DNA of 32,000 nucleotides, taken from NCBI GenBank assembly GCA_964480775.1, contig CAYZRF010000021.1, positions 1 to 32,000 of the forward strand. The letters run 5' to 3'. Source of the stretch: an uncultured Nitrososphaerota archaeon. GTDB lineage: Archaea; Korarchaeota; Korarchaeia; Korarchaeales; Korarchaeaceae. Position 1 is the first letter of the stretch, and the number at the start of each line of letters is the position of its first letter. The translations under genes were made by a program, and so were the position numbers. Positions 1,238-21,881 of this stretch are shown in pieces. The notes under the pieces are model-generated. The model saw only the letters and a list, made by a program, of their open reading frames with translations. It was not told the origin of the DNA and ran no database searches.

Positions 1238-1615
1238 TTGAACCAAACCATATCCTACGCAATAATCGGGACATTGGGCTTAGTTAGCTTAGTTGTATCC
1301 TTGCACGGCATCCAGCCATTTATCTCTGATATTGAAAGAAGAGTCGAAACTGGTTGTGTATACTCAGTTCTCAGTGCAATAAGCAACGTAGTCAATTCGG
1401 TTGTTGGTGGAGGGTCCGCTAGCGGAATAATATTTACTCCATTCCAAGTTAACCTTTCAGTTGTTGACAGAATCCTTTTTGCCAGTTGTGGCGATTACAG
1501 GGCAGATCTTGAATTTCCTTTCGAAATATCTCCATTAAATGCCTCAATAAGGGGGTTGGTCAGAATAAAGGCAACATGGTCTGAAAAGGGAGTTTCACTG
1601 GTGATTAAGGGATGA
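1238..1615 (+). CDS. hypothetical N-terminally anchored protein (locus 1 accessory operon, gene 1)
   Basis: 125-aa ORF with no ATG codon at all, so it needs a TTG start. It has one N-terminal hydrophobic helix (ISYAIIGTLGLVSLVVSL), and its stop overlaps the next start (ATGA). Confidence 0.5.
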   Translation: MNQTISYAIIGTLGLVSLVVSLHGIQPFISDIERRVETGCVYSVLSAISNVVNSVVGGGSASGIIFTPFQVNLSVVDRILFASCGDYRADLEFPFEISPLNASIRGLVRIKATWSEKGVSLVIKG

Positions 1616-1965
1616 ATGTAGAGATTGATGAAGCTTTAAGAACCTTAGTTTTTGTAGCATTACTCCTTGCTTCAGGGGCAATCTCCAATAGATTAGCATA
1701 CTTGAGAGTTAAGAACTTTGGATACAGACTAGCTTCTACCCTTACGGCCCTAAGCGAAAGATCAGTAAATCACAAAGTGGGTATAGCGCTAGAACTACCA
1801 GAGGGTAATTATTCCTTGATTTTCTTCGACAATGGTTCAGCTCTTTTCTCAATGAACGGGTACGAAATAGTTCTGAACGGCATTTCAACGGACTTAAGGG
1901 GGGAGATCCGAGGCGGGAAAGAATTACAGATTACAAGCAGAGGGGAGCTAATCCAAGATGGATGA
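1612..1965 (+). CDS. hypothetical pilin-like/anchored protein (gene 2)
   Basis: N-terminus MNVEIDEALRTLVFVALLLASG (an acidic residue, then a hydrophobic helix), followed by a beta-rich-looking C-terminal part. ATGA overlap with gene 1. Confidence 0.55.
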   Translation: MNVEIDEALRTLVFVALLLASGAISNRLAYLRVKNFGYRLASTLTALSERSVNHKVGIALELPEGNYSLIFFDNGSALFSMNGYEIVLNGISTDLRGEIRGGKELQITSRGELIQDG

Positions 1966-2059
1966 AGAAATTGCTGATGCAGTTTGGTTCATAATCGTGA
2001 TAGCAGCCCTAATACTAGCTATTTTGGCTAGCAACCCACCGCCCTCGCCAATAGGGTGA
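1958..2059 (+). CDS. possible 33-aa single-TM micro-protein (gene 3)
   Basis: Not in the ORF track because it is under 60 aa. ATG 1958 gives MDEEIADAVWFIIVIAALILAILASNPPPSPIG. It overlaps gene 2 by 8 nt, and its TGA overlaps the next start (GTGATG). Confidence 0.3.
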   Translation: MDEEIADAVWFIIVIAALILAILASNPPPSPIG

Positions 2060-2337
2060 TGAAGCTGAGGACAATTGCCTTTTTGATTGCCCTCTTGCTT
2101 TTATCTCTTCTAGTTATTGATCTTTCAATAAAGAGCATAGTTCCTTCTTGGGCAGTTAAGGCGAGAGAAGATATTGCTATTAGAACAGTCGAACTCTTTT
2201 GGAAGAAGGGTGTTCGACTCGTTTGGGAAGGAGGCTACAGAGAGAACCTCGATCCCTATGGATTAAGCGTTAAAATCAAAATTCCAGTGCCAAGCTCGCC
2301 AAATCAGATATGTGTTGAGATTTCATATAGGAGATGA
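2059..2337 (+). CDS. hypothetical N-terminally anchored protein (gene 4)
   Basis: MKLRTIAFLIALLLLSLLVIDL signal-anchor. The start is ATG 2059, or GTG 2056 as in the track. Confidence 0.5.
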   Translation: MKLRTIAFLIALLLLSLLVIDLSIKSIVPSWAVKAREDIAIRTVELFWKKGVRLVWEGGYRENLDPYGLSVKIKIPVPSSPNQICVEISYRR

Positions 2338-2341
2338 GAGC

Positions 2342-3331
2342 TTGAGAGAGGTTTTAGCTATCATAACGATTTTGATCTTGATACTTCCAACATTTATCGT
2401 CCCGGATACTAATATCTTGGATAGCAGAATAATTGATGCCGCTTTTGCGGAAAGTTCTGCATGGATGGAGTCCGAAATAGCCCTACCAAGATATCTCTCA
2501 TTCATTAGATGTCTGATAGATGAGTGGCTAGCCAATAACTATGGAAAGGATGTAGATCAAGTAAGACTTCCAAAGATCATAAATACAGAGGATTGGAAGA
2601 CATATGCCGAGAACGAAGCCAGGAGTAGGGGAATCATACTCTTTTGCAATGTAACGCCCGTAATATTGAGTAGGTCTTATGCAGCTAATGAACTACAAAA
2701 CAAGGTATTTGCTGGAGGATGTAAGCCAGGGGCTATAGGTGTGCAAAGTTCTTTATCCATCTTTGTAGTTTCGAAGAGGGGTTTTGCAGAAGCAGTCGCA
2801 AAGAGAAATTACTCTATTTCAGTTTGTCACCCCTGCCTCTATTTTCTAATAAAGGAAGCTCACAAAAAAATAGAAAAAGAGTTAGAAAACTTGATACCAG
2901 ACGAAACAGTAGTTGTTGGTGTGAGAAATGACTACATATCAGCAGTATTTCTGCTTAAATCCAAACTTTTAGATTTAGATAAGAAAATAGACGATCTTCT
3001 CACTTCATTAAAGAGAGAGTTCTCCTCAAAAGGAATAGAAATAGAATTCGACGTTAAGAGAGAAATTTCTATATCAAAAAGCGGAAATTCCGTGAGATTA
3101 ACTGTATCATACAAGTTTTACATAGAAGTCTGGGATAAAGAGGTTATTTATTGGGTTAGAGGCCTTCGAAAAGGCTGGTATTTGAAAAATGATCTCAAAT
3201 TGAAAGCCAAAATGTTGTGCAGGGTTCAAGAGGCGTTCAAAAGGATACCTACCAAAAATAGAGAGAAAGGACCTGAAAAAAGAGAGAAATCAAGGGAGAG
3301 GACAATACCTTGGCTAATACCGCCCAGATGA
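2342..3331 (+). CDS. hypothetical anchored protein with Lys/Arg/Glu-rich tail (gene 5)
   Basis: TTG 2342 lies 8 nt after AGGAG; the track uses GTG 2312. N-terminal helix LREVLAIITILILILPTF, then about 300 aa of soluble part ending KNREKGPEKREKSRER. No known motif recognised. Confidence 0.6.
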   Translation: MREVLAIITILILILPTFIVPDTNILDSRIIDAAFAESSAWMESEIALPRYLSFIRCLIDEWLANNYGKDVDQVRLPKIINTEDWKTYAENEARSRGIILFCNVTPVILSRSYAANELQNKVFAGGCKPGAIGVQSSLSIFVVSKRGFAEAVAKRNYSISVCHPCLYFLIKEAHKKIEKELENLIPDETVVVGVRNDYISAVFLLKSKLLDLDKKIDDLLTSLKREFSSKGIEIEFDVKREISISKSGNSVRLTVSYKFYIEVWDKEVIYWVRGLRKGWYLKNDLKLKAKMLCRVQEAFKRIPTKNREKGPEKREKSRERTIPWLIPPR

Positions 3332-3645
3332 GGATCATCCTTCTATTTAATGGCTTTAAAATATCAACCTATGATTGGTTCTTAGGATCAGAGACTATAT
3401 TCAATATTTTAAGGAGAATTCTAAAAAGCTTGCTTCTCGAAGTAGATAAAGGACTTCAATTCCTTAACAGAGTATTTACAGCTTTACTTCCAATTATATT
3501 CTTCATCTGGGTCCTGCTTTGGATCATGAACTTGGAGGAATTAAAAGGCCTTCAAAAATACATCAAGTGGTGGGTTCTATTCTGTTTTGTAATGATAAGC
3601 ATATCTCAAGGGCTTTCTTTCCTAATAAATGCGAAAATCGACTGA
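3328..3645 (+). CDS. hypothetical small membrane protein (gene 6)
   Basis: ATG 3328 overlaps the previous stop (ATGA). Two clear hydrophobic segments (LLPIIFFIWVLLWIM, WWVLFCFVMISI). Confidence 0.5.
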   Translation: MRIILLFNGFKISTYDWFLGSETIFNILRRILKSLLLEVDKGLQFLNRVFTALLPIIFFIWVLLWIMNLEELKGLQKYIKWWVLFCFVMISISQGLSFLINAKID

Positions 3646-4036
3646 GCTTTAGGTTTTTTATCAACTTTGGAAAGAGAACAATTGTAAAAGAAAACAAAAA
3701 ATAGTAGGAATGGAAATACCCCCTTCCTCTACTCAAACCAATGATGCAAGCAATAAACAAGATTTTTCCAAGGTCAAAGGAGGAAATAAGAGGGGAAATA
3801 GCAATAATGAACTTACAATCTCCGCCTCCAAAGCCAACGCCGTATAATGACAAAGCAAAAGGAATAGCAGCAAATATTCTAATGAAGACAGAAAAATGTG
3901 AATTTCTTAATAAAGAAAAGATGGAATTTAGAGAAAATAGGAATATATTCAATCTATTAGGTATCTTGCCTGTCTTGACATCTATCAGAGAACTCAACAA
4001 TGCTTCCAACATGGCTATAGCCATCATGAGCATCAT
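3563..4036 (-). CDS. minimal A24-family prepilin peptidase (TadV/CpaA-like)
   Basis: 157 aa and polytopic. It carries the two aspartate motifs of A24 peptidases: LIDVKTGKIPN and GFGGGDCKF. It follows the platform genes directly (TGA then ATG, 1-nt gap). Confidence 0.7.
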   Translation of the reverse strand: MMLMMAIAMLEALLSSLIDVKTGKIPNRLNIFLFSLNSIFSLLRNSHFSVFIRIFAAIPFALSLYGVGFGGGDCKFIIAISPLISSFDLGKILFIACIIGLSRGRGYFHSYYFLFSFTIVLFPKLIKNLKLSRFSHLLGKKALEICLSLQNRIEPTT

Positions 4037-4037
4037 A

Positions 4038-4613
4038 TCACCCGAATAAATTGCTGAGTAAGAAAGTTGTCATCAGAAAAGGTATTGAATAGTACATTAG
4101 CCACTTTAGGCCCCTTTCCACTTCTTCCGCAATAAATACTGTAAAAGCAGCTCCGATTAATCCAAAAGACACGAAATTGCTGTGAGGCTTTCCAAGAAGC
4201 ATGTACCAAAGGAGTTCAGATATCTTCGAAAAGGCAGCTGACATGACTCCCAACATCATGATCAAGAACCTTGCTAAATTCCTTCTATTTTTCAAGAGAG
4301 CTGCTCTCTCGGCCTCCAGCTCTTCTACAACTCTCACAATGGATGCAGTGTCCCTAAGCACTCTACCGATAAATTCTGGCTCTGCTCCAGAGGTCAATAT
4401 TTCAGCTAACCAAGGACCATAATCTCCGAGAACGGTTTGGAGATTCACCATAATTTCTTCAATTGTTTTGTCGTCGGCAATAGCTTTCATAACGAGATTC
4501 TTGATTTCAGGGTCAAAGAGAGCAACTTGCCTCAGTGCAACGACTGGGTGTCGATTAAGTTCCAGTGAATCGGCTAGTGCCTCTATTATCACCGTTTTCG
4601 AAGTCTTTTCCAT
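4038..4613 (-). CDS. single-domain T2SSF platform protein (TadC-like half)
   Basis: 191 aa with a helical T2SSF-type cytoplasmic domain followed by TM segments. It has its own AGGAGG 8 nt before ATG 4613 and overlaps the upstream gene by 25 nt. Confidence 0.7.
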   Translation of the reverse strand: MEKTSKTVIIEALADSLELNRHPVVALRQVALFDPEIKNLVMKAIADDKTIEEIMVNLQTVLGDYGPWLAEILTSGAEPEFIGRVLRDTASIVRVVEELEAERAALLKNRRNLARFLIMMLGVMSAAFSKISELLWYMLLGKPHSNFVSFGLIGAAFTVFIAEEVERGLKWLMYYSIPFLMTTFLLSNLFG

Positions 4614-5089
4614 AACTTAAACCTCCTAAATGAATATCTGAAGATTGAAACCACGAATAGACAAATAGAGGTTGGACCGATAAGAGAGGAAGGTATTGTA
4701 CCGAGAGCAGAAGCGCTAGCCAATAGCATCATTGTTAAGAAAGCCATAGATAGTCGGATGGCCATTTTATGGTCAAGTTCCTTATTTTCAAGCTCTATTT
4801 CCACTCTCATGAAGTTCTTTAGGGTATTAACGATGTCTTGAGAGTTTGCCCCTTGAAGAAGGGATCTAATTGCCACAGCTAAAGGGCGATAACTCAATTG
4901 TTCACAAAATGCGTTTAATTTGCTCTGAAGAGTGTATCCTTCAACAGAGGAAGTAAGAAACATAGTTCTCATTTCTTTAGCGTAAGGTTCAAGTTTGGAC
5001 CTAGCTACAAGTTCAACGGCCTTAATCGGACTCCAAGTGAGTCCTAGAGAAAACAGCTGAATGAACCTCATAACTTGCTTTCGATCCAT
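4589..5089 (-). CDS. single-domain T2SSF platform protein (TadB-like half)
   Basis: 166 aa with the same helical-domain-plus-TM pattern. AGGGAG lies 7 nt before ATG 5089, and it overlaps the end of the ATPase gene by 22 nt. Confidence 0.7.
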   Translation of the reverse strand: MDRKQVMRFIQLFSLGLTWSPIKAVELVARSKLEPYAKEMRTMFLTSSVEGYTLQSKLNAFCEQLSYRPLAVAIRSLLQGANSQDIVNTLKNFMRVEIELENKELDHKMAIRLSMAFLTMMLLASASALGTIPSSLIGPTSICLFVVSIFRYSFRRFKLWKRLRKR

Positions 5090-6501
5090 GAAGTAGCTCC
5101 CTTTATCCTCTTGATAACTTCTTCATTGGTCTTCAAGTTCAGCGAAGATCTGATCATTGAGAGAAACCTCTCTGAGGGTTTTGGTTTTACCTCCTCCCAA
5201 CCACTATCCTCATACCTGTAGAGTTTTTCGGCAACCCTAAATTCCATAAACAACGTTAAACACCCCATTAGAGCATCTTCCATTCCCCATCTAAACCATT
5301 TCCTCTCCAACGAGACAGGATCCTTAGCATGCGTTGTTGCGATCACCCTGAATCCGCTTTCTTTTGCTAGAGCAAAGGCTTTAGCGTGTTCTTCTGTAAG
5401 AATTTCCCCTAAAAAGACTAAATCAGGATTTCTATGCAAAAAGGTGGTCACCACACTCTCCCTTTCACCAGGAAAGACGTAGGGATGATGTTTAAGGCCA
5501 TAACGAGAAAAATCTTCAATTTCCCTTACTTCCTCGATGCTTATGATCCTCCATTCCCTAGCGGAATATGCTAGAAGAGAGTTAGCTAGTGTGGTTTTGC
5601 CTACGCCCGTTCTTCCAACAATCATGATTGGCTGTCTTTCGTACATGGCTTGTACTAAATAGGCTGCAAGGCTTTCACTTATCGTCCCTAACGCTATTAA
5701 GCGCGACATTGGAAGTCTCGGCAAAGCAGAAAGATTTCTTGCGTCAAACGAAGGTTTTGATATTGGAGGAATGTCAACTCCAAGTCTAATCTTAGAGTCC
5801 TTAAAGGTAAACTCAATCTTTACGGTGGGTTGGTTGAGGTTAAGGGACCCATAGGGATGCAACTCCACTATCGTTCTAATCTTTTCAAACTCCCTCCTAT
5901 CTAGGATTAAATTGCTAATTTCAACCCTACCTGCCTCGATGTGATCTATGTATACCGGAGAACCCTCAAGGCCGTAGATCTCAGTTATATCATTGCCAGT
6001 TGCCAAGATAAGAATGGGCCAAGCCTTTGTAGATCTTACAGCTGCTTCTAAGATAATGTCATCTCTTAAAATCTTATTAGAGCCGAGTATCTTTTTTATC
6101 TGGTTCTTTCGAAAATTTATAACGTCCCAAAGATCGATTTCCAATGAATCTTCTGGATAAACTCCTTCCATTAACCTAGAGAGACCTATTGCAAAGATCA
6201 CACTTCCTGAACCGCAAATCCAGCTCTTGGGTATGAAATAAGTCCTTTTACCATTCATGCCAAGCATAGCACATCCGAGATCCTCTATTATTTCATCAAA
6301 ATGTATCTTTGGGGTTTTTAGAGGAGGATAGGGTACTTCCTTTACAAACGCAATGTGCTTCTCGCTTCCAAGTGCTGCCAACAATCTTGCCTTGTCGTAG
6401 GTCTGATAAGGACTGAGAAAAAGATCTAAGGAAAACTCCTCTACCCACTTTATAGCTGCATTTACGAATCTATGATATGAGTTCTCCTCGTTAAGGCCCA
6501 A
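5068..6501 (-). CDS. PilT-class type II/IV secretion ATPase (TadA/CpaF/EpdL-like)
   Basis: Walker A GRTGVGKTT, Asp box IISIEEVREI, Walker B PDLVFLGEI, His box VIATTHA. TTG start 9 nt after the pilin stop, preceded by GGGGTGA. Confidence 0.9.
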   Translation of the reverse strand: MGLNEENSYHRFVNAAIKWVEEFSLDLFLSPYQTYDKARLLAALGSEKHIAFVKEVPYPPLKTPKIHFDEIIEDLGCAMLGMNGKRTYFIPKSWICGSGSVIFAIGLSRLMEGVYPEDSLEIDLWDVINFRKNQIKKILGSNKILRDDIILEAAVRSTKAWPILILATGNDITEIYGLEGSPVYIDHIEAGRVEISNLILDRREFEKIRTIVELHPYGSLNLNQPTVKIEFTFKDSKIRLGVDIPPISKPSFDARNLSALPRLPMSRLIALGTISESLAAYLVQAMYERQPIMIVGRTGVGKTTLANSLLAYSAREWRIISIEEVREIEDFSRYGLKHHPYVFPGERESVVTTFLHRNPDLVFLGEILTEEHAKAFALAKESGFRVIATTHAKDPVSLERKWFRWGMEDALMGCLTLFMEFRVAEKLYRYEDSGWEEVKPKPSERFLSMIRSSLNLKTNEEVIKRIKGATSWIESKL

Positions 6502-6510
6502 CTACTTGGT

Positions 6511-6792
6511 TCACCCCGTGGTGAGGTTGCCTCTGGCTAAATTCTCACTTTCTGAGCCCCAGAGGCTGCTAAGATGTTCGCTTAACCAATCAATGAAATC
6601 CGAAAATTTCTCTTCAGTAAGATCCGGTAGATTCCACAAGAACTCCAAAGCGTTTGCTACAGGGTTTACAACAAGAGCGAAGAAAGCAGCTATGGTGGCA
6701 GCAATCAAAAGAGCAGTTTCTGTTGTCTGAGTTAAACCAGATTCATCCTCTAAAAAACCCTTGATGAATCTTTTAATTTTCTTAAACAGCAT
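6511..6792 (-). CDS. Flp-type prepilin (93 aa)
   Basis: ATG 6792 is preceded by GGAGGTGAAA. The leader junction KGFLEDESG/LTQTTETALLIAATIAAFFALV resembles bacterial Flp/PilA (FLKDESG/ATAIEYGLI). The 119-aa version in the track is a spurious 5' extension across the promoter. Confidence 0.7.
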   Translation of the reverse strand: MLFKKIKRFIKGFLEDESGLTQTTETALLIAATIAAFFALVVNPVANALEFLWNLPDLTEEKFSDFIDWLSEHLSSLWGSESENLARGNLTTG

Positions 6793-6826
6793 TTTCACCT
6801 CCCAGAGGGGGAAAGCTTGGAAAGGG

Positions 6827-6834
6827 TATTTAAG
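6827..6834 (-). promoter_or_regulatory. putative TATA box of the Flp-like gene
   Basis: The minus strand reads CTTAAATA about 35 nt upstream of ATG 6792, which would leave a short SD-containing leader. Confidence 0.35.
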
Positions 6835-7064
6835 ACGTCTCTTAGCAGAATACATTGTTCTTGCAATCATTATTGGGCGTTTATGCTACTAAACACGTTG
6901 TTTTACTGATATCACTCATCAGAAAAACATAGGATATATTCAAGAGTAACAGGGTAGATATCCAAAGTTTTGCACTTAATTTATCATTTATTATCCCATC
7001 AAAAGGTTAATCTAGGAGGGGATTAGGACTAAAAGGATTCCTTTCTTCAAACTTTCTCATCAAC

Positions 7065-8225
7065 TCATCCAAAGCCTTCCAATACCAGAAGCATCCTATG
7101 GGCATCGGTTCTGGTAGCTTCAGAAGGGTTAATTGCTGCCCATATCAGTCTCTTTATCCCTTCTCCTTGAGGATCGCTAATTGAGCGAAGTTCATGCGGC
7201 CTTACTTCTAGAGATTTAGAAATAAGCCTAATAAACCAAGGAAATAGGGCCAAGATACAATTCTTAATGTCACCTGAATTTAAGAGATGTCTCGCTGCTC
7301 TAATTTCTTTAGATCCCTCTCTTCTTAACTTACTAACTAGTAAACAAAAAGAAAGATCTCTCAACGCAATTCCCAAAAAACCTATGGAGGAAATCAAAAA
7401 GAGAAAGGTGTTGAAGCACCCAGTTAAGACGGTGAATAGAGCAGATAAGATCAGCCTCTTTTTTGCTAATTGCTTCGATGTCTTAATTAGATCAAAAACA
7501 TCTAAATTTTCTACTTCTTTGCTTGGAATAGTTAGACGGCTTGATAACTTAAAAACCAAAAAAGGGCTGAGAAATAGGGCAAAAAAAGATAAATTTGTCT
7601 TCAAACGATAGATTAATGCAAAAACAGTAGAAGCTATGTTTAAACTAAATGCTATGTGGGAGAGTCTTATTTCTCCCTGGTAGCTCATATAACTAAGTAG
7701 AGGAATGCCAATAATTGATGAAAGTAGAAAATAGAAATTTGGAAAAGAAAAACTAACGACATTGAAGTCCCCCAAGAAAACTGCTATAGAAAATGTAACA
7801 GAACTAACTAGGGCCGAAATTGAAAGGTATTTTAGGAACGTAGGGAAGTTCTTTCTCTTCCCTATCTTCCGAGCTAGCAATAGGCTAACTGAATCACTGA
7901 AACCATACAACGAAGTCCATCCATACAGGAGCGCATGAATTGTTGATATAGAATTATCCAAATTCACAAAGGCTGGCAGATATAGAAACATCAGTACACC
8001 AGATATTCCAAGGCTTGTAAGACTTTGGAGATAAGAACATGCTCCTAGCATGGCCCCTAGAACACAAACGAGAAATAAACCTCCAAGATCGTCATAGGAC
8101 ACTTTTATCTGCCAAGCTAGACTATCCCCTATGCTTACTTCTCTTTTAAGTGCGCAAAAGTAGAGAGAGATTAACAGCACACCGTAAAGAATAGTTAAGA
8201 GATACAGGGCCTTATTTGGGTTCAA
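7065..8225 (-). CDS. hypothetical polytopic membrane protein with about 100-aa C-terminal soluble region
   Basis: 386 aa with many hydrophobic segments and a TTG start. It overlaps the stop of the ParA-like gene by 14 nt, which suggests co-translation. No motif recognised. Confidence 0.6.
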   Translation of the reverse strand: MNPNKALYLLTILYGVLLISLYFCALKREVSIGDSLAWQIKVSYDDLGGLFLVCVLGAMLGACSYLQSLTSLGISGVLMFLYLPAFVNLDNSISTIHALLYGWTSLYGFSDSVSLLLARKIGKRKNFPTFLKYLSISALVSSVTFSIAVFLGDFNVVSFSFPNFYFLLSSIIGIPLLSYMSYQGEIRLSHIAFSLNIASTVFALIYRLKTNLSFFALFLSPFLVFKLSSRLTIPSKEVENLDVFDLIKTSKQLAKKRLILSALFTVLTGCFNTFLFLISSIGFLGIALRDLSFCLLVSKLRREGSKEIRAARHLLNSGDIKNCILALFPWFIRLISKSLEVRPHELRSISDPQGEGIKRLIWAAINPSEATRTDAHRMLLVLEGFG

Positions 8226-9498
8226 TGAAATCCCTTCCCATGCCTTTGAGTTTTAGAAATGATAGTGCAAGATCCAAGAACATTCTATACTCTTGCGATA
8301 AGGATGAAATATCTAATTCCTGCCTAGCTGTCAAAGAGCTAGCTGTTTTCTCATCAAGACCCGCCAAAAGAAGTGCTTCCTTTAGATTTTTCCTCGTTAT
8401 GAATGCTTCCATTCCATCCGAGAACCTAAGTCTAACCTTTCTTCTAAAGAAAGGGAATAAATCAATGTGAAAACTAGAAGATTCTATCTCTCTGTAAATA
8501 TCTTTAGGAACTGGAACCTCTTTGGCCTGAACAATTCCCTTTATAGCTTCTAGTCGTGGATTGGTTTCTTCCAACAAATCACTGTACTGATTTGATAAAT
8601 AACCCTGTCCCGACGCGCCTAAGTCAATAGTTGGAACTTGATTATCAAAATTTCTTACAAAATGAAAGTCCTTACGAAATATCTTGATTAAATGCTTGGC
8701 CACACTCCTTTCTTTATAATCAATATCACCGTTGAAACCTTCAATTAGGGAGTGATAGAAAGTTGCCTCATGCATTCTTGAAAGTGAAATTGAACAACTT
8801 TGAATGCATCGAGAAAACGACTCATCAAAGGGCAATAAATAAGCAGGGACATTCCAATAAGTTTTTACTAGCTCTTGCAGTTCAGTTGATTGTAAATTAT
8901 GCCCATATTTGTTTATTATGACAAAAGGAGTCGAGAGATTGTTAATATCTAAAGAAAAAAGGTGTCTTTTTGTTTGAAGAATGGAATTTTTGTCTGGAAG
9001 CAAGACTGGGATTAGCAAACTGACCCATCTTGAGAGAGCCTTAAGCAGAACCCTTGCTGAGTAGTCCGATGATGGAAAATCTACTATGAGGAACTCAACA
9101 CCAATCTCGCGAATATATTCCTCTAAAGATCTTAGTCTAAGCAAAAGAAGATCAATTGGTTCGTACAACAGCGTCGAAACATCATCGCTTCCAGCAGGAA
9201 TTACTTTAAGCTTAATGAGATCAGAAAGTTTGCGCCTGATACTCGAGTCTTCGAGTGAAATCAACGGATCATATACTACTTCCTCAGGGAATTTATTCCC
9301 AAGTAAAACATCGTGAAGACCATGAAATCCCTCATTTCCAAGGAATAAGTACGTTAGATCGGCGTTATGTAGATTAGCATCCATAACCGCAGCCATCTTA
9401 CCCTCTTCTTCCATTAGATATGACATTATGAAGGATAGAGCCATGCTAACCGAGGTCTTACCAACCCCTTCGGTGCCAAAGAAACCTACTTTTAGCAT
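8212..9498 (-). CDS. ParA/MinD-family P-loop ATPase (TadZ/CpaE-like) with unknown C-terminal extension
   Basis: From ATG 9498 the protein opens MLKVGFFGTEGVGKTS, with the P-loop at the extreme N-terminus as in MinD/ParA. LIVDFPSS is a Walker B-like strand. The last 190 aa or so are unrecognised. The track's TTG 9573 start would overlap moaA. Confidence 0.7.
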   Translation of the reverse strand: MLKVGFFGTEGVGKTSVSMALSFIMSYLMEEEGKMAAVMDANLHNADLTYLFLGNEGFHGLHDVLLGNKFPEEVVYDPLISLEDSSIRRKLSDLIKLKVIPAGSDDVSTLLYEPIDLLLLRLRSLEEYIREIGVEFLIVDFPSSDYSARVLLKALSRWVSLLIPVLLPDKNSILQTKRHLFSLDINNLSTPFVIINKYGHNLQSTELQELVKTYWNVPAYLLPFDESFSRCIQSCSISLSRMHEATFYHSLIEGFNGDIDYKERSVAKHLIKIFRKDFHFVRNFDNQVPTIDLGASGQGYLSNQYSDLLEETNPRLEAIKGIVQAKEVPVPKDIYREIESSSFHIDLFPFFRRKVRLRFSDGMEAFITRKNLKEALLLAGLDEKTASSLTARQELDISSLSQEYRMFLDLALSFLKLKGMGRDFIEPK

Positions 9499-9539
9499 TA
9501 ACCCATCAATATGATGAACGCCTGTCTCAAAGACCCTAT

Positions 9540-10502
9540 TTAAGGAGATCTTGCCAGCGCAGTTTTCGGACAATGGGCTTCTGTGGACTTAAAGTAAGGT
9601 TCTCTTTGTGCAACAGCTCTTAATAAGGAGTTGACAACTCCGCCCCAGCTTCCTGATCTAAGTTCCTTTAGAAACTTAACAGGAGGTTTACTGGAAAGAA
9701 GGCATGTTTTAAAAGCGCCAAAATGAGTGACTCTAATTTTAGTGCAGTGATAGCAGAAATCAGGATTGCTCATAGACCTTACAAGCTCAACCTTAACATC
9801 TCCTAGGTCATATACTGGCCTATCGTGCATATCTTGACGTATTTTAATCGAAATTGCCTTTTCCTTTATTCTTTCCTCCAGCTCATGGAAATCTACGCCG
9901 TATTTCCTAAGAAGAGGGGAGTTTGGATCTCTATCTTGTAGTTCAATTAGCTGGACGTCAGCACCTATGTTAGCCGCAAACTCGATCAAAGAATCGAGTT
10001 CTCCTTCATTTAACCCCCTTAACATGACGCGGTTAATTTTAAGACGTTTTATACCGAACGATATAGATTTTTCTATCCCCCTCAACACCTTTTCGAGGCT
10101 ATCTACACCAGTAATTCTTTGATAAACCTCCTTTTTCAAGGATGGGAGGTTTACGTTGACCCTGTCGAGACCAGCTTCAATTAAGCCTTGAATTCTTTCC
10201 TCCAGAAGGGTTCCGTTTGTAGTGAGTCCTATGTCCTTTATGCCCTCAACCCTCCTGATCTGAGCTACTATCTCACTCAGATCTTCTCTAAGGAGGGGCT
10301 CACCCCCAGTCAGCTTTATTGTTCTGACGCCAAAGTCAGCAAGGATGGCAACGAGTCTACCAATGTCCTCAGGAGTCATTATTTCATTTTCTTCGTTATG
10401 ATAGCCCTCAGCATGGCAAAAGAAGCATCTTAGATTGCATTCATGGTTAACTGAGATCCTCAAGTTGAGCAGAGGCCTGTCATAGGGGTCTCTGAGTATC
10501 AT
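9540..10502 (-). CDS. moaA: GTP 3',8-cyclase MoaA (radical SAM)
   Basis: CNLRCFFCH radical-SAM cluster motif, a TIM-barrel-like body and C-terminal Cys residues (CYHC...C) for the second cluster. Confidence 0.92.
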   Translation of the reverse strand: MILRDPYDRPLLNLRISVNHECNLRCFFCHAEGYHNEENEIMTPEDIGRLVAILADFGVRTIKLTGGEPLLREDLSEIVAQIRRVEGIKDIGLTTNGTLLEERIQGLIEAGLDRVNVNLPSLKKEVYQRITGVDSLEKVLRGIEKSISFGIKRLKINRVMLRGLNEGELDSLIEFAANIGADVQLIELQDRDPNSPLLRKYGVDFHELEERIKEKAISIKIRQDMHDRPVYDLGDVKVELVRSMSNPDFCYHCTKIRVTHFGAFKTCLLSSKPPVKFLKELRSGSWGGVVNSLLRAVAQREPYFKSTEAHCPKTALARSP

Positions 10503-10560
10503 GACGAATTGCCAACTATGTCATATCGAATTTAATAATAACTCTTACCTTTTACGAAGG

Positions 10561-11100
10561 ATGGAAAGCCCAGTCCATGAACATAGAGCCAAATCCCCTC
10601 ATAGATTGAGATATGCCGTTTATACGGTTAGCTCCTCTAGATATAAAGCGATAAAAGAAGGAAGAGACTTTACTGATCCTACTGGAGACTTAGCAGTGAA
10701 GTTGATAGAATCGGCTGGAAACTCAGTTGTCATAAGGAAAGTACTTCCTGACGAGAAATCATCAATAAGACGCGAGTTAGAGAGTGCTCTAAAAGAAGCA
10801 GACGTCATCATTCTGTGTGGTGGAACTGGATTACATCCAGAAGACGTAACTGTCGAGGCCGCAAGCGGAATATTTGAGAAAGAAATACGGGGCTTTGGCG
10901 AGCTATTTAGGCATCTTAGCTTTCAAAGCATCGGATCTGCTGCTATGTTAAGCAGAGCAACAGCGGGAATTTGTAGGGGAAAGGCGATTTTCTGTCTTCC
11001 AGGATCAACGAAGGGAGTAGAGCTAGCCCTCAAGAAACTTATCCTGCCAGAGGCTGGGCACATAATTTGGGTTGCTAGAGGGTATAAGAACGGTTCTTGA
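10561..11100 (+). CDS. moaB: molybdenum cofactor biosynthesis protein MoaB/MogA family
   Basis: CGGTGLHPEDVT...GFGELFR...LSRATAG...CLPGS blocks. ATG 10561 is preferred; the track's 10501 start overlaps the moaA start codon. Confidence 0.85.
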   Translation: MESPVHEHRAKSPHRLRYAVYTVSSSRYKAIKEGRDFTDPTGDLAVKLIESAGNSVVIRKVLPDEKSSIRRELESALKEADVIILCGGTGLHPEDVTVEAASGIFEKEIRGFGELFRHLSFQSIGSAAMLSRATAGICRGKAIFCLPGSTKGVELALKKLILPEAGHIIWVARGYKNGS

Positions 11101-11103
11101 ATT

Positions 11104-13080
11104 CTAACCTAGAAAAAAACCAATATCATCGCCAACAACATATCCAGGCATGTTAGAGAGCTTATTTTTGAAGTCATCAGATTTGAGAACCTGAAGAAAC
11201 AGCTTAACAGAGCGTTTATCCAATCTGTCCATCCTTACAAGGAAATCGTACCTCTCAGTAGTTAGAGGAATGAAATCCAACCCTTTAATCCTTGCTACAT
11301 ACTCTATTCCAAGGCCTACGTCTGCTTCTCCTCTTGCCACGGCCTCAGCAACACCAGAGTGAGTTTTCCTCTCGAATCCATACCCGTTTATACGCTCTTT
11401 TAGCGTCTCAACTGAAATACCCTTCTCTGCAGCCAACCTAGCGATGAAGTAATCCAAAAGTATCCTTGTTCCAGAGCCTCTATTCCTGTTCACAAACCTT
11501 ACGTCGTTCCTCAACAAGTCCTCTATCCTGCTAATTCCTTTGGGATTTCCTTTTGCAACAATTAATCCTTGAACGCGTTCGTACCCTCTAACGAGCTTTG
11601 CTACGCCCTTTAAAGAGTAATCCTCCAAGAATCCAACGTTGTACTCACCTGTCCTAGGATTCAGCGCATGAACCCCTGAGATGTCTGCCTCTCCAGCCCT
11701 AATAGCTTCAAAACCTCCCAGAGATCCAACGTTCACGCGGACTATCCTTAGATTTTCCTTTTTCTTGAGCATTGAGAGGAGAAGTTCAGCTCCTGGGCAG
11801 TGACTTCCTATGAATCCAAGATCTGCAGGTCTAACCCCTTCCTGAAAAGGAATGACGAGGACCTTTTCTCCTCTTTCTACGTATTCCACATTCTCTGATA
11901 TTTCTACATATCCGTCTGCCCTGCTGAGAGTTGATATAGCCTCAGATCCTGTAGGTATTGGAAAAGCCAATATCTCTCCCTTCGCATCTGACAGCAAAGC
12001 AACGGGGAGGAAGTTCCTCCTCCCAAGAGTGGAGCGCACTCTCCTTCCCATCTTTGCTTTTATCGGAACTTGCTCCAAGGTCTTAATTCCAGCCATTTTC
12101 CTCACTAAAGGAGATACAAACTTTCTATAGGCAATGAGCGCGCTTGTTGGATATCCTGGCAACCCAATTACGAACTTATTTCCGATAACACCGAGAATAA
12201 AGGGCTTTCCTGGTTTCATAGCCACGCCATGAACGAGTACCCCAGGTTTTCCCGCTTTGTCTATCGCTTTATACACTACATCACCAGCCCCAGCACTTGT
12301 ACTTCCAGATACGAGAACTAGATCAGCCCACTTGAGAGCTCCCTTTATTTCACCTAAGATAGACTCTAGGTCGTCTGGTAATATCCCTAGAACCTTTGGC
12401 TCTCCTCCATCCTGCCAAACAGATGTTGAAATAGTGTATGAGTTTATGTCATAGATCTTACCGTAATCCAATGGATTTCCAGGAGCAACGAGCTCGTCTC
12501 CTGTGCTAAGAATGGCCACAACAGGTTTCTTTACCACTTTTACTTTCGTTCTCCCTATGGCTGCTAGCAATCCTATCTCCCTGGGACCTAGAATGCTGCC
12601 GGAGTGCAATAGGGTTTCTCCTGCAGCCACATCAGTACCCGTGCCCTGAATATTGGCTCCTGGTGCAACAGATTTGAAAATAAGGAGGAGATCTCCCTTA
12701 ACTTCTGTTCTCTCCACTAGGACAACCGCATTTGCTCCTGGAGGAATAACGGCTCCTGTAGCTATCTCAACCGCTTCTCCCTCAGAGACCACACCTTTAA
12801 AGGGCTTTCCAGCCTCTGCAATGCCTATAATCCTTAAAGTTACGGGGTTCTCCTCGTCCGCGCCGAAGGTGTCCTCTGCCTTCAGGGCATATCCATCGTA
12901 CATGGCCCTATCGAATGAGGGGACATCCACCTCTGAAGGAATGTCCTCTGCAAGCACCCTACCAACGGCATCCTTGATAGGTACATCCTCTGATTTAGGG
13001 ACATAGGAGTAATGCCTTTCTATTAAGCGAGAAACCTCTTCAACGGAAACTAGCTTTCTAAACTCTTTTCTCTCTCCCAT
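11104..13080 (-). CDS. moeA: molybdopterin molybdo/tungsto-transferase MoeA fused to a C-terminal PBP-like binding domain
   Basis: The N-terminal 410 aa or so are MoeA ([35 protein letters not shown]). The C-terminal 230 aa or so resemble periplasmic-binding-protein-like domains. This fusion is known in archaea. Confidence 0.9.
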
Positions 13081-13089
13081 ATAGATCCC

Positions 13090-14376
13090 TCAGAGCGTGC
13101 TTAATTCTGAAACATTCGTAGATATGTAGCGCTTGAATGGGAGAACCTCTACGATCTCTCCCTCCTTATACCCCTCTACATCCTCAGGTACGATGAGAAA
13201 TGCGTCCGCTTTTACCAATGAACTTGCAATTCCAGCACCGGAGATCCTAACAGGGATTGCCAACCACTCATTTCCACTTCTCTTAAGCTTGACTCTAGCG
13301 AAATGCAAAATTCCTGGTCTTGAAGGTACCTTGCCCACAAGCCTAGCCCTAAGGGTGTTTATCATCCTCTCACCCTTAATCCCAAGAAATCTCTCAATTA
13401 AGGGGACAAGAAATAGCAATGCAGCTACGGCAGCAGATACAGGATAGCCTGGAAGACCTATAAATGGCTTCCCATTTGAAAGAACTGAAAGCAGGGTAGG
13501 TTTCCCAGGCATAACCCCTACTCCATGAACGATTATCTTTGCTCCAAGTTTTTCAAGAGCATCTGGAACGAAATCGGATGTTCCAACGCTGGTTCCTCCG
13601 CTCGTTAGGATGACATCTGCCTCCTTGCACTCGCTTATTCTCCTTGCGAGTTCATCTGCATCATCGTCTACAATTCCCTTGTAAGAAAAGAGACCCCCGT
13701 GTTCCTCTACAATTCCTTTAACGAGCCATCTGTTGGAATTCACAATTTTTCCTGGGGCTTCCTTATCTCCTACCTCAATTAACTCATGTCCCGTGCTTAT
13801 CATGCCAATAACAGGCTTCTTACGAACCAAAACCTCTTTTTTGTTGATAGAAGCTAGCAAACCTAGTTCAAAGGCCCCTATTATGGTTCCCTTTGGGAGC
13901 AGGACTTCACCTGCCCTGATGTCCTCACCCCTCCTTGAAACGTTCCGGAACGGCGGAACTTGTTCATAGATTCTGACCATTCCACCACTTTCCTCAGAAT
14001 TCTCCACCTCTACAACCGCATCGGCCCCTTTTGGCAAGACTGCCCCAGTGTGGATCCTTACAGCCTCTCCAGCCCTGACTTCCAAGCTTATCTCCCTGCC
14101 AGCTTGAATTTCTCCAATGACTCTGAGTGCAATTGGAGAATGTTGGGATGCTCCGTATGTATCCTCAGCCCTGACGGCGTATCCGTCCATAGCTGCCCTG
14201 TCAAACGGCGGAACATCTTCTTGAGCTCTTATATCTTCAGCTAAAACCCTGTCTAGGGCATAATCTAGCCCTACGTACTCAGCCTCGGTGGGCTTTAGGT
14301 CAAGAGAACTCATGAAAGTTTCCAGAGCTTCTCTTACCTTCATGATCGTTCTGAAACCCTTCCATTTGTGGGACAT
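13090..14376 (-). CDS. moeA: molybdopterin molybdo/tungsto-transferase MoeA (stand-alone paralog)
   Basis: [29 protein letters not shown] and GLPGYP. The N-terminus aligns with that of the paralog (KGFRTIM vs KEFRKLV). Confidence 0.9.
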
Positions 14377-14429
14377 CTTGGAACATTTGCGAGTGCACTT
14401 ATTACGTTTGATGTATTTATCATACTGAG

Positions 14430-15185
14430 ATGAAAGGAGGAACAGGTGGTGTTCTTACAACCAGAGATCTTATTAGATACGATAGACAACTTCTGATCAT
14501 TGGTAAGGCTGGCCAGGAGAAACTAAAGAGAGCATCCGTTGCAATAGTGGGAATAGGTGGGTTGGGTAGCCCGGCTGCTTTCTACCTTGCTGGGGCTGGG
14601 GTGGGAAGGCTGATATTGATAGATCCTGAGAGACCAGAGCTGAGCAATTTGAACAGACAAATAATACATTGGGAAGGCGATTTTTCTCTTCCCAAAGCCC
14701 AGTCTGCCGCAGAGAAATTGAGAAAATTCAATTCTGACATCGTTATAGAGCCTAAATCAGTCAAAATTACAAAAGAAAACGTTTCAGAAGTCTTAAGTGG
14801 GGTAGATGTGGTTGTTGATGGACTTGACAACTTCGAGACAAGGTACCTCCTCAATGAGTACTGTTTGGAGCACGGAAAGCCATTTGTACACGCAGCAGTT
14901 AGGGGGTTGGTTGGTCAGGCAACGACAATCGTACCTCAAAGATCTCCATGCTTAAGGTGCATTTTTCCAGAGCCTCCAAAAGCTGAGAAAAAATTCCCGA
15001 TTTTGGGGGCAACAGCAGGAACTCTCGGCTGTATTGAAGCGTTAGAAACGATTAAACTGATAACTGGCTTTGGGAGACCTCTGACAGGGAGACTTCTCAT
15101 AATAGACCTTGAGGACATGACTTTTAACCTGATAGGGGTGAAGAGGCGGCCAGACTGTCCCGTGTGTGGAGGCCTCCATAGTTAG
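14430..15185 (+). CDS. moeB: ThiF/MoeB/UbaA-family E1-like adenylyltransferase
   Basis: RYDRQL...VGIGGLGSP nucleotide-binding fold and two CxxC pairs (CLRC, CPVC). It sits next to moeA and moaB. Confidence 0.85.
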   Translation: MKGGTGGVLTTRDLIRYDRQLLIIGKAGQEKLKRASVAIVGIGGLGSPAAFYLAGAGVGRLILIDPERPELSNLNRQIIHWEGDFSLPKAQSAAEKLRKFNSDIVIEPKSVKITKENVSEVLSGVDVVVDGLDNFETRYLLNEYCLEHGKPFVHAAVRGLVGQATTIVPQRSPCLRCIFPEPPKAEKKFPILGATAGTLGCIEALETIKLITGFGRPLTGRLLIIDLEDMTFNLIGVKRRPDCPVCGGLHS

Positions 15186-15239
15186 TTGAATAATTAATAT
15201 TTTTAATGCCAAATTCCCAACAGCCGCTAAGACATCCAA

Positions 15240-16409
15240 ATGACCCTTATAGGAGAAAATAAGCGAAATTTTGCGTCTCTAACGGTTTCAAGGTCTCTAA
15301 AGGGCTTTTTCGATTCTATACCAAATACCATCCTGACACCCTATCTATACGATCTAGGTGCATCCTTTACCCTTCTAGGATCTTTTAGGGCCTTTCCTTC
15401 ACTGATAAGCTTGATTTCTTCGAGATTTTGGGGAGCTCTCAGCGATGCTACCAACAGGAGGAAGCCATTTATCCTTCTCTCCTTCCTCCTTTCAGTACCC
15501 TTTTTTCTTGCTTACGCCTTCATAGCCAATAGTCCAGAGGACTACCTTTTGATAAGGATCCTAAACTCCTTCTTTTCTCTGGAAGTCGGGATTATGCCGG
15601 CAACCATAGCTTCTACCTCCACAAGACTTGGAAGAGCATTCGGTGACTATTCCTTCGCTACATCGGCAGCATGGACATCTGGCGGTATGCTTAGCGGCTG
15701 GTTTGTGGAACACTACGGCATTAATCAAGCTTTTCTGCTAAGCATTTTTGGAACCCTTCTGGCGTCAACTACCTTCCTGTTCACTTACAAAGAGAAGAAT
15801 GACAGCAGACGTCACAACATAGATTCGCAAAAAATTATACTGAAGACTATTTCATTTGATTTGAACCGAAGGGCACAGAATCTGGCCTTAATCGCTGTTT
15901 TTACGGCCTTAAGAAGTGCTTTTTTCGGTTTGCCTGCAATGATGAAGATGTACGTCCTTCTGGGTAGGTCAAAAACGAGCTATACCGTCATCCTAAGCCT
16001 AGCTGGATTGACTGGCATAGTAACATCACCACTTTATGGAAGGGCGGTAGACAGATTCGGTGCAAGGAACTCCGCGATCGCTTCTCTCTTAGCCTACACG
16101 ATTTATCTACCGCTCATGGCCCTTACCAACGATCCTGTCCTTTTTGCAATTTTATGGGCAATCCCAATAGGAAACCTTGAGTACGCGGCCCTTATGTCCC
16201 TAAAGGTAAGGGTTTCTAATCCTAATGGTAGGGCAACGGACATAGGTACGATGGAGTCTATTTCCTCTTTATTCTCAGCTTTTGGCAACATAGCAGCAGG
16301 AGTTGTAATAGACCGGCTGGGCACAGCACCTTCTCTCTTCACAGCAACTACTTTTGACGCAATTGCCCTTGTATTATTGCTTCGAAAGCCGGATCTCGTG
16401 ATAAAATAA
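15240..16409 (+). CDS. MFS-type transporter
   Basis: 389 aa with about 11-12 hydrophobic segments in two halves, and an MFS-like loop motif (GALSDATNRRKP). Confidence 0.75.
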   Translation: MTLIGENKRNFASLTVSRSLKGFFDSIPNTILTPYLYDLGASFTLLGSFRAFPSLISLISSRFWGALSDATNRRKPFILLSFLLSVPFFLAYAFIANSPEDYLLIRILNSFFSLEVGIMPATIASTSTRLGRAFGDYSFATSAAWTSGGMLSGWFVEHYGINQAFLLSIFGTLLASTTFLFTYKEKNDSRRHNIDSQKIILKTISFDLNRRAQNLALIAVFTALRSAFFGLPAMMKMYVLLGRSKTSYTVILSLAGLTGIVTSPLYGRAVDRFGARNSAIASLLAYTIYLPLMALTNDPVLFAILWAIPIGNLEYAALMSLKVRVSNPNGRATDIGTMESISSLFSAFGNIAAGVVIDRLGTAPSLFTATTFDAIALVLLLRKPDLVIK

Positions 16410-20499: not shown

Positions 20500-20761
20500 C
20501 TACTCCCATAATGTGATAGACCGGGTTGATTTAGATTATTGAACAAATAAAATGCTGTGGATCAACATTAAAATCTACCTATGTTTACTAGAAATTACTT
20601 ATATTTTACAAAATATGATAAAGAAATTCTAGATAAAAGCCAGAAACAGTTGATTCTAGTAGAAAACAATTCATATAGAATTTTTTGGTTAAATTAACTT
20701 ATTTTTAAGTTTTCCAAATAGATGGTGATCTTTGATAAGTAAAAAATGAAACCTAAGTAAG

Positions 20762-21877: not shown

Positions 21878-21881
21878 GATA

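Follow-up and report, generated by a model that had tools for sequence, protein, structure and literature searches.

The locus considered here raises the question of whether an archaeon carries a pilus machine of the Tad/Epd type and, if so, whether that machine stands close to the ancestor of the bacterial Tad pilus or was returned to archaea from bacteria. It lies in a stretch of 32,000 nucleotides from an uncultured archaeon of the Korarchaeia (assembly GCA_964480775.1, contig CAYZRF010000021.1, positions 1 to 32,000; hereafter the window), in which an earlier note had recognized a prepilin, an ATPase, two platform proteins and a prepilin peptidase as a type IV pilus (T4P) core. Comparison with related loci indicates that the region is probably a complete, self-contained archaeal T4P assembly system with a Tad/Epd-like architecture, and that it is a member of a rapidly evolving archaeal family with representatives in Thermoproteota/Korarchaeia, Bathyarchaeia, Asgard and Marsarchaeota. 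The architecture described in the earlier note is supported by the combination of a prepilin with a Flp-like leader, an ATPase, a split platform and an A24 peptidase. Its proposed ancestry, as discussed below, is not.

Organization and conservation of the locus

The five core genes, which overlap or abut on the minus strand at 3563-6792, are all present as described earlier, together with every one of the motifs quoted for them: GRTGVGKTT, IISIEEVREI, PDLVFLGEI and VIATTHA in the ATPase, LIDVKTGKIPN and GFGGGDCKF in the peptidase, and KGFLEDESG/LTQTTETALL in the prepilin. These genes are real, but they do not make up the whole system. Judged from gene content, the pilus unit covers about 1238-9573 and adds a ParA/MinD-like NTPase, a 386-aa membrane protein and an operon of divergent small-protein genes, all of which had been missed (Table 1). 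The peptidase gene and ORF191 are separated by a gap of 1 nt, ORF191 overlaps ORF166 by 25 nt in a different frame, ORF166 and the ATPase gene overlap by 22 nt, and the ATPase and prepilin genes are 9 nt apart. Each platform half has its own strong Shine-Dalgarno (SD) sequence, as noted before, with AGGGAG lying 8 nt ahead of the ATG codon of ORF166 and AGGAGG 8 nt ahead of that of ORF191. The ATG codon of the 93-aa prepilin is preceded by the SD sequence GGAGGTGA. The exact 93-aa prepilin is a called gene on a 32,455-bp NCBI contig, which also holds identical copies of the ATPase, ORF166 and ORF191. Most genes of the pilus locus are unnamed or labelled hypothetical in the sources checked.

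Table 1. Genes assigned to the pilus unit, with positions in the window
Feature	Position	Strand	Length (aa)	Remarks
A24 peptidase	3563-4036	minus	157	
ORF191, platform half	4038-4613	minus	191	putative equivalent of the C-terminal T2SSF domain, TadB-like; cytoplasmic helical domain, then about 3 transmembrane (TM) helices
ORF166, platform half	4589-5089	minus	166	putative equivalent of the N-terminal T2SSF domain; cytoplasmic helical domain, then 2 TM helices
T2SSE ATPase	5068-6501	minus	477	TTG start
Prepilin	6511-6792	minus	93	internal ATG at 6792 of a 119-aa ORF (6511-6870)
Polytopic membrane protein	7065-8225	minus	386	upstream of prepilin
ParA/MinD-like (SIMIBI) NTPase	8212-9573	minus	453	P-loop GTEGVGKTS
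Divergent ORF	1238-1615	plus	125	
Divergent ORF	1612-1965	plus	117	
Divergent ORF	2056-2337	plus	93	
Divergent ORF	2312-3331	plus	339	
Divergent ORF	3310-3645	plus	111	

The whole arrangement is repeated in the closely related locus L001, the ATPase of which is 78 % identical to that of the window. A Korarchaeota locus with 44 % ATPase identity (L003) contains the ParA-like gene, the membrane protein, a 97-aa pilin, the ATPase, platform halves of 167 aa and 187/190 aa, an uncalled A24 ORF and divergent small ORFs. Homology with L001 and L003 was confirmed gene by gene with BLASTP, and the same gene order recurs in independent assemblies. Because of this recurrence the arrangement cannot be ascribed to chance.

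A predicted platform of two minimal proteins

In all loci of the family the platform genes are located directly downstream of the ATPase gene. The two halves encoded in the window, ORF166 and ORF191, give no match in Pfam or NCBIfam even at E<=1, and the gathering score of the Pfam T2SSF family (PF00482) is not reached. T2SSF is the Pfam family matched most often by relatives of the halves (3 of 12), with a best E of 0.0044, which is sub-threshold. For a more sensitive comparison, a profile was made of eight bacterial TadB and TadC proteins from the tad loci L169-L172, fetched via their CpaF proteins. In profile-profile alignments with hhalign, the N-half family matches the T2SSF core of this profile with a probability of 91.4 % (P 9e-7) and the C-half family with a probability of 92.1 % (P 6e-7), compared to 4.9 % and 1.5 % for the respective reversed controls and 0.1-0.4 % for unrelated membrane proteins. 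The start motifs in the alignments of the halves are SLGLTWSPIKAVELVA and ALADSLELNRHPVVALRQV, which may be compared to SLRAGYSFQQALDLVG in TadB/TadC. When the two bacterial proteins are considered separately, the C-half prefers TadB (74.8 %) over TadC (47.2 %), and the preference of the N-half is ambiguous (85.6 % for TadB, 82.5 % for TadC). The same test, applied to the two-domain platform of a second T4P locus in the window (locus 2), pairs TadB with the C-domain and TadC with the N-domain, in agreement with the assignment reported by Denise et al. (PMC6668835). The predicted topology of both halves comprises five or six short helices followed by TM helices. Similarity between ORF166 and ORF191 themselves, as expected for an internal duplication, amounts to a weak signal (hhalign 15.5 %, P 0.0017), on which no conclusion was based. 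On the basis of the profile-profile comparison and the genomic context, and not of curated thresholds, we conclude that ORF166 and ORF191 are putative minimal and highly diverged proteins with a single T2SSF domain each. The earlier description of two separate T2SSF-like platform proteins, and of the Tad-like split that they represent, is thereby upheld by hhalign and context, but finds no confirmation in Pfam or NCBIfam.

When ORF166 is joined to ORF191, the product can be aligned end to end with single proteins of 303-313 aa that follow the homologous ATPase elsewhere. The existence of such fused genes in some relatives, together with the 25 nt overlap in different frames, would fit a single gene that was broken by an assembly or sequencing frameshift, or that belongs to a decaying locus. 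This explanation is most improbable. The split is present with the same short overlap in L001 and in three Korarchaeota contigs from different samples (L003, L004 and L088), and separate products occur in independent assemblies, in five clusters of 166-aa and eight clusters of 184-191-aa proteins. Both halves have a strong SD sequence at the right spacing, and more distant split pairs are found in L006 (240 and 193 aa), L015 (204 and 219 aa) and the Asgard loci (269-275 and 205-243 aa). Since the split is conserved in L001, in L003 at 44 % ATPase identity and in independent assemblies, it does not result from a sequencing frameshift, a possibility that the earlier note had left standing.

The fused state is not restricted to one group of relatives. 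Single platform proteins of 303-313 aa occur in other Thermoproteota, of 448 aa in L021 and of about 400 aa in Marsarchaeota. When the ATPases are placed in a neighbour-joining tree (415 columns, 100 bootstraps), the window groups with L001 and the Korarchaeota locus L003 at 99 %, the loci with fused platforms of 306-313 aa form a group at 100 %, and Asgard (split) and Marsarchaeota (fused) group together at 100 %. The backbone of the tree is weak (11-22 %), but whichever way it resolves, the split and fused states interleave. As read from this tree, the platform gene has split or fused at least twice within the family. Because the two states interleave in this way, a split platform alone is poor evidence of common descent with Tad/Epd, and its value as a marker of Tad ancestry is weakened.

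A short pilin-like protein with a Flp-like leader and an A24 peptidase

In the 93-aa prepilin a basic/acidic leader of 19 aa, which ends in FLEDESG, is followed by a hydrophobic helix (LTQTTETALLIAATIAAFFALVV) and then by a tail of about 45 aa that is acidic and Trp-rich. This is the layout of a class III signal peptide, with a short charged leader ending in Gly, a hydrophobic helix and an acidic residue near +5, and genes for an A24 peptidase and a T2SSE ATPase adjoin. In the Flp processing motif, G/XXXXEY, a Glu at +5 is followed by Tyr. This motif is absent from the window prepilin, which reads G/LTQTTET; if it is cut after Gly19, Leu is at +1 and Glu25 at +6, and there is no Tyr. The position of the Glu, the lack of Tyr and the acidic Trp-rich tail are the three departures from canonical Flp that had been pointed out before, and all are seen in the sequence. 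In a MAFFT alignment, Glu25 is aligned with the Glu of the bacterial Flp of the tad locus L169 (EEDG/QGMTEYALI), the clade of the window having an insertion of one residue after the Gly.

Profile searches with the homologues of the prepilin give sub-threshold matches only. For the 97-aa Korarchaeota homologue, which is 56 % identical, the sole Pfam match is Flp_Fap (E 0.036, 14.3 bits, cutoff 32.2), and two Asgard homologues match the archaeal Pilin_N family with E values of 0.019 and 0.087. The bacterial Flp of L169, which was used as a control and looks truncated, scores 24.6 bits with Flp_Fap and is also below the cutoff. A search of NCBIfam with the pilin family gave no match. The layout of the pilin was expressed as a pattern (a charged residue, any residue, one of KRSQ and one of GAS, then 4-6 residues, an acidic residue and at least 13 hydrophobic residues) and applied to all ORFs of the window and of 29 archaeal loci of the family. 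Matches were obtained in 12 of these 30 sources, the window included, all within a few kb of the family ATPase; at least 10 look genuine, as L013 duplicates L006 (same contig) and the match in L022 (46 aa) is doubtful. Pilin homologues adjoin the family ATPase in L001, L003, L006, L007, L017-L020, L024 and L097, and those that share the layout of [DEKR]x[RS][GA], 4-5 residues, an acidic residue and a hydrophobic helix span four lineages, i.e., Thermoproteota, Korarchaeota, Asgard and Marsarchaeota. At the predicted junction the window, L001, L003 and L006 share [DE]E[SR]G/[LV]T..[..][ED].ALL[IV]A, and the Asgard and Marsarchaeota pilins share [KR][GA]/SP[LI][LIT]EE.[LI]L[IV]G, where G/SPLLEEG has Glu at both +5 and +6 and no Tyr. 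On these features the 93-aa protein can best be called a short pilin-like protein of type IV that has a Flp-like leader. The designation as a bacterial-style Flp prepilin is appropriate for its leader and its length, but not by the Flp_Fap profile, which it does not match.

The tail of the prepilin (encoded at 6511-6560 of the window) ends in an N-L-T sequon (GNLTTG). The corresponding sequences are GNLTQG in L001 and NTTTNVTEP in the Korarchaeota homologue, which suggests a conserved N-glycosylation site on an exposed pilin tail.

The peptidase matches Pfam Peptidase_A24 (PF01478) over residues 10-101 with 42.7 bits (cutoff 26.5). It does not contain a methyltransferase domain, and the catalytic Asp residues are located in LIDVKTG and in GFGGGDCKF, the latter containing the GxGD motif. 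Both motifs are kept in the peptidase ORFs of L001, L003, L006, L015 and L021. The protein is a minimal A24 peptidase, as proposed. In NCBIfam it reaches EppA with an E of 2.8e-4 (20 bits, cutoff 450) and FlaK with an E of 0.025, both far below their cutoffs. Of the Pfam families that the earlier note suggested searching, Peptidase_A24 and T2SSE are matched above cutoff by proteins of this locus, and T2SSF and Flp_Fap are not matched. The prepilin and the peptidase would form a pair with an unusual predicted cleavage context, ESG/L with Glu at +6. The peptidase ORF exceeds its L001 orthologue by 23 aa and overlaps by 83 nt (3563-3645) with the convergent 111-aa ORF at 3310-3645. Four of its first five codons are Met codons, and the SD spacing favours the fourth or fifth as the true start.

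The ATPase and the question of Tad ancestry

The ATPase matches Pfam T2SSE (PF00437) with 46.9 bits (cutoff 24.9). Walker A, Asp box, Walker B and His box are all present, and the residues in the invariant columns of the family are G296, G301, K302, T303 and T304, E323 and E327, G365 and E366, and T389 and H391. PilB/GspE-type ATPases have Arg/Asp after the GE of the Walker B region (GEIRD). In the window ATPase this context (residues about 359-372, PDLVFLGEILTEEHA) reads LGEILTEEHA, without the Arg/Asp, and the consensus of the wider family is LGEILxxEHAEAF.

The ATPase shows no membership of the CpaF/TadA subfamily in any of three comparisons, with NCBIfam, with the PDB and with a CpaF profile. 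In NCBIfam it is roughly equidistant from FlaI (57 bits), TrbB (53 bits), VirB11 (47 bits) and the TadA family (47 bits; 46.9 against a cutoff of 373), all far below the cutoffs. Among PDB entries, the family profile scores highest with FlaI (105.6 bits) and Archaeoglobus fulgidus GspE2 (104.7 bits), followed by CpaF (75.8), VirB11 (59), GspE (48), PilT (45) and PilB (38). The earlier assignment to the PilT class is therefore wrong, the nearest structures, at about 105 bits, being those of FlaI and the archaeal GspE2. Conversely, a profile of 70 CpaF proteins gives 235-265 bits with TrbB, 205 bits with the ATPase of locus 2 and 115-139 bits with Asgard members of the family, but only 77.7 bits with the ATPase of the pilus locus studied here (locus 1).

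It could still be argued that the locus belongs to the Epd/Tad clade proper, either as a near-ancestral relative of bacterial Tad or as a Tad system that an archaeon received back from bacteria. The leader FLEDESG resembles those of bacterial Flp pilins: Caulobacter PilA reads FLKDESG/ATAIEYGLI, and the Flp of L169 reads LFKEEDG/QGMTEYALI. A short pilin, a split platform, a ParA-like gene and a minimal peptidase are characters that have been listed for the clade of Epd-like and Tad systems (PMC6668835). In a word-indexed search with the ATPase, about 48 archaeal relatives are followed by bacterial CpaF proteins (E 1e-8 to 1e-5) as the first matches outside the family, and some members of the wider family have been labelled 'CpaF family' or 'TadA' by annotation pipelines. 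These pipeline labels are inconsistent, however, and include FlaI and generic names as well. The CpaF affinity indicated by the word-indexed search is not borne out by the PDB ranking, by the reciprocal CpaF profile or by an exhaustive HMMER search with the family profile. The latter yields 269 representatives at E<=1e-30, the best 150 of which all score >230 bits, and the named members among the sampled top matches are all archaeal and none bacterial (Bathyarchaeota, Lokiarchaeota/Promethearchaeota, Freyarchaeum, Borrarchaeum and Asgardarchaeia).

Pattern scans of genome and metagenome contigs, derived from the ATPase alignment, recovered about 25 archaeal loci and beyond them bacterial ones. 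The eight bacterial loci that were inspected (L026, L029, L031, L033, L035-L037 and L044) are P-type conjugation loci with TraG, TrbB, TrbC, TrbD and TrbE, and none is a Tad locus; the same presumably holds for most of the other bacterial loci recovered. The apparent bacterial link is an artefact of two peptide patterns that match TrbB in all eight.

Taken together, these comparisons make membership of the Epd/Tad clade unlikely. FlaI and A. fulgidus GspE2 exceed CpaF by about 30 bits, the CpaF profile scores 78 bits with the locus-1 ATPase as compared to 205 bits with that of locus 2, and the interleaved split and fused platforms imply more than one fission or fusion within the family. The pilin lacks G/XXXXEY and has Glu at +6, no Tyr and Leu at +1, the substrates of EppA having Gln at +1. 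No secretin, RcpC, TadE or other Tad profile was matched in any of the neighbouring ORFs scanned, and the base composition of the window shows no clear foreign island. The proposal that the locus is close to the Tad ancestor, or the product of a return transfer, is consequently unsupported. As far as can be judged from these tests, the ATPase is situated on a long archaeal branch and nothing points to a special relationship with CpaF or to a bacterial origin; the locus appears as part of a divergent archaeal family, for which neither a position as Tad ancestor nor bacterial import is supported by the tests run. The current picture of type IV filament evolution is not overturned by it.

Comparison with known type IV filament systems

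The bacterial Tad/Flp pilus (type IVc; Caulobacter Cpa, Aggregatibacter Tad) has many features in common with the window locus, in the list of parts as well as in their order. In both, the pilin is short and its acidic leader ends in Gly, the A24 peptidase is small and has no methyltransferase domain, and a ParA/MinD-like NTPase and a T2SSE ATPase accompany two platform proteins with a single T2SSF domain each; the bacterial tad locus L169, for example, contains Flp, A24, CpaE, CpaF, TadB and TadC. In contrast to bacterial Tad, the window locus has no match to secretin, RcpC, TadD or TadE/F/G profiles and its ATPase is not CpaF-like. The absence of a secretin, already stated in the earlier note, holds for all neighbouring proteins scanned; an archaeon would not be expected to have one. 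Each platform half is about half as large as TadB or TadC, has no N-terminal TM segment and is invisible to Pfam, and the N-domain half precedes the C-domain half, tadB being equated with the C-domain and tadC with the N-domain by Denise et al. The window pilin differs from bacterial Flp in its Glu at +6, its lack of Tyr and its 45-aa acidic tail with an N-glycosylation sequon, and the ParA-like protein differs from TadZ/CpaE in showing no match to a receiver-like N-domain.

Denise et al. (2019) described the clade of Epd-like and Tad systems as having short pilins, TadZ-like proteins that are relatives of arCOG00589 and arCOG05608, and two single-T2SSF platform genes that arose by fission (PMC6668835). 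The Epd system of Methanococcus maripaludis (EpdJ/K/L, EppA) and the Epd-like clade are similar to the window locus in being archaeal and in having short major pilins, two single-T2SSF genes, a dedicated peptidase and a TadZ-like ATPase (PMC6668835). They differ in the peptidase, which has 157 aa in the window as compared to 334 positions in the EppA model (the best NCBIfam match, but a very weak one), in the Leu at +1 of the window pilin, and in lineage, the family of the window being found in Thermoproteota/Korarchaeia and Asgard and not in methanogens. Very small single-domain platform proteins and Flp-like pilins extend far beyond the methanogen Epd systems and are present in Thermoproteota, Korarchaeota, Asgard and Marsarchaeota.

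Two groups of Thermoproteales loci described by Makarova, Koonin and Albers (2016) also come close to members of the family. In clade 4G the ATPase and TadC are diverged, and there are a FleN/MinD ATPase (arCOG05608), additional membrane proteins and numerous small pilin-like proteins that evolve fast (PMC4858521). Clade 4D combines an ATPase and a TFIIB homologue with a protein of 4-5 TM segments that was suspected of being a short, degenerate TadC; no pilin was known for this clade (PMC4858521). Likened by the description in that paper only, both clades fit family members, the TFIIB neighbours included. The window locus differs from clade 4D in containing a Flp-like pilin and a peptidase, and from clade 4G in that the 4G pilins fall within the PilA family and are not Flp-like. 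It may help to explain archaeal loci with an ATPase and a membrane protein for which no pilin is known.

Locus 2 of the window (17486-20499) provides a comparison within the same genome. It is an ordinary archaeal T4P locus with an ATPase of the same superfamily (T2SSE 99 bits) and a T2SSF platform, the latter being a single 532-aa protein with two domains and a Pfam T2SSF match. Besides being split and minimal, locus 1 is much more divergent than locus 2. The region of locus 2 (17486-25489) includes a series of small and medium-sized ORFs (146-346 aa) without Pfam matches, which may encode its pilins.

A literature search found no paper on this family or on Flp-like pilins in TACK or Asgard archaea. 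One speculative and rather doubtful idea is that the family is the TACK/Asgard counterpart of the euryarchaeal Epd lineage, sister or ancestral to Epd/Tad; the similarity tests, made with an ATPase on a long branch, lend no support to a special link with CpaF. If the idea were true, short pilins of the Flp type, a TadZ-like NTPase, a minimal peptidase and a splitting platform would be ancient archaeal traits rather than innovations of the methanogen lineage, and the 'missing pilin' of the TFIIB-linked clade 4D systems would be supplied.

Proposed mode of pilus assembly

In the proposed mechanism the 93-aa prepilin would enter the membrane via its hydrophobic helix, and the 157-aa A24 peptidase would remove the 19-aa leader, most likely after Gly19 (FLEDESG/LTQTTE). 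The 477-aa ATPase would dock on a two-protein platform formed by ORF166 (the N-domain equivalent) and ORF191 (the TadB-like C-domain), and ATP hydrolysis would power the assembly of mature pilins of roughly 74 aa into a thin filament. On the surface of this filament the acidic Trp-rich tail would be exposed, probably in N-glycosylated form. A TadZ-like role in positioning or scaffolding the machine is probable for the ParA/MinD-like NTPase and the 386-aa membrane protein, and the five small anchored proteins are candidate minor pilins that could prime or cap the filament. The likely function of such a filament would be adhesion to surfaces or cells.

Several results weigh against the presence of a complete pilus system. 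The window prepilin matches no Flp, class III or other pilin profile in Pfam or NCBIfam (Flp_Fap being searched up to E<=10), and tblastn of the prepilin against plasmids revealed no plasmid-borne Flp. Neither platform half meets any curated threshold, and searches of the PDB with hidden Markov models of both halves returned only noise. Their AF2 (AlphaFold2) models are of low confidence (pLDDT 62 for ORF191 and 71 for ORF166) and are derived from shallow alignments, and Foldseek found no significant match for either model in the PDB, none having E<0.9. Among the weak Foldseek matches of ORF166 the cytoplasmic domains of EpsF/OutF recur, with target-normalised TM-scores of 0.42-0.51 for what is a poor model. 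The ParA-like assignment of the 453-aa protein is confined to the P-loop region. Finally, a TFIIB-like gene is often present beside the loci of relatives, and the TFIIB link of clade 4D has been read as a hint of a role other than in a pilus (PMC4858521).

The last point bears on a different explanation, in which the T4P-derived machinery no longer builds an adhesive pilus and is used instead as a pseudopilus for secretion or DNA uptake, or as a transcription-linked regulatory device. TFIIB-like genes adjoin the homologous loci L003, L006, L007 and L018-L020, and in L005 and L008-L010 the ATPase is accompanied only by one 313-aa membrane protein, no pilin being recognisable in the vicinity. 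The unusually divergent ATPase, with LGEILTEEHA in place of a sequence with the usual Arg/Asp after GE, would also fit, and Makarova et al. (2016) raised such a role for clade 4D (PMC4858521). In the window, however, there is no TFIIB gene beside the locus, both the ATPase and the peptidase have intact catalytic motifs, and a pilin, a dedicated peptidase and small anchored proteins, which are what filament building needs, are all included in the locus and conserved in its closest relatives. We regard a non-pilus role as improbable for the window locus, and an archaeal pilus assembly system remains the probable assignment.

Accessory genes and genomic surroundings

The 453-aa NTPase scores 19.1 bits with Pfam CbiA, below the cutoff of 25.4, and matches NCBIfam minD_arch with an E of 1.6e-4. 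BLASTP against the bacterial CpaE of L169 aligns the P-loop only (E 0.001 over 52 aa), and no Response_reg match or other receiver-like N-domain was found. The gene lies upstream of the pilin and ATPase genes in L001 (55 % identity) and in the Korarchaeota locus L003 (24 % over 433 aa, E 1e-19) as well, and by position its product may be regarded as an analogue of TadZ/CpaE or of archaeal FleN/MinD. The 386-aa protein consists of a polytopic membrane part and a C-terminal soluble helical tail and has no match in Pfam or NCBIfam. It is kept in L001 (50 % identity), its N-terminal membrane part matches a 267-aa gene of L003, and its tail resembles, by eye, the adjacent 127/129-aa gene of that locus. 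It is possibly an accessory part and a candidate scaffold.

Most of the five divergent ORFs start with an N-terminal hydrophobic helix, and none has a Pfam match. All five have counterparts at the same position in L001 (51-66 % identity); those of 339 aa and 93 aa are kept in L003, and that of 125 aa in L012, L014 and L090. Their products are candidate minor pilins or accessory parts, presumably membrane-anchored. In L001 two extra genes, for proteins of 464 aa and 420 aa, lie between the membrane protein and the pilin (4950-7603) and are absent from the window. The 420-aa protein has weak CARDB and faint MG4 matches, and both proteins are possible adhesins or surface proteins.

The TFIIB-like genes of related loci encode a Zn-ribbon and cyclin-type domains and occur in Korarchaeota, Thermoproteota and Asgard contigs, at 10614-11420 in L003, 10963-11952 in L006, 5960-6991 in L007, 5514-6563 in L018, 6635-7693 in L019 and 6594-7652 in L020. 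The Thermoproteota loci with a fused platform (L005, L008-L010 and L089) yielded no Flp-like pilin. Upstream of the ATPase they encode a conserved protein of about 228 aa that has TM segments at its N- and C-terminus, and still further upstream L005 and L010 encode one of about 830-860 aa. An SMC gene follows in L005, L009 and L010, in L005 together with ScpB.

Scans of the whole window for tRNA genes and Rfam families gave no matches. The pilus locus is surrounded by molybdenum-cofactor genes (394-849, 9540-16409 and 26525-27340), including MoaA, two MoeA, one of which is fused to a PBP-like domain, two MoCF_biosynth genes and ThiF/MoeB. The ORF at 394-849 was identified as MoaC only by synteny with L001. 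The same MoeA/MoaA neighbours are present in L001, and the linkage is therefore conserved at an ATPase identity of 78 %.

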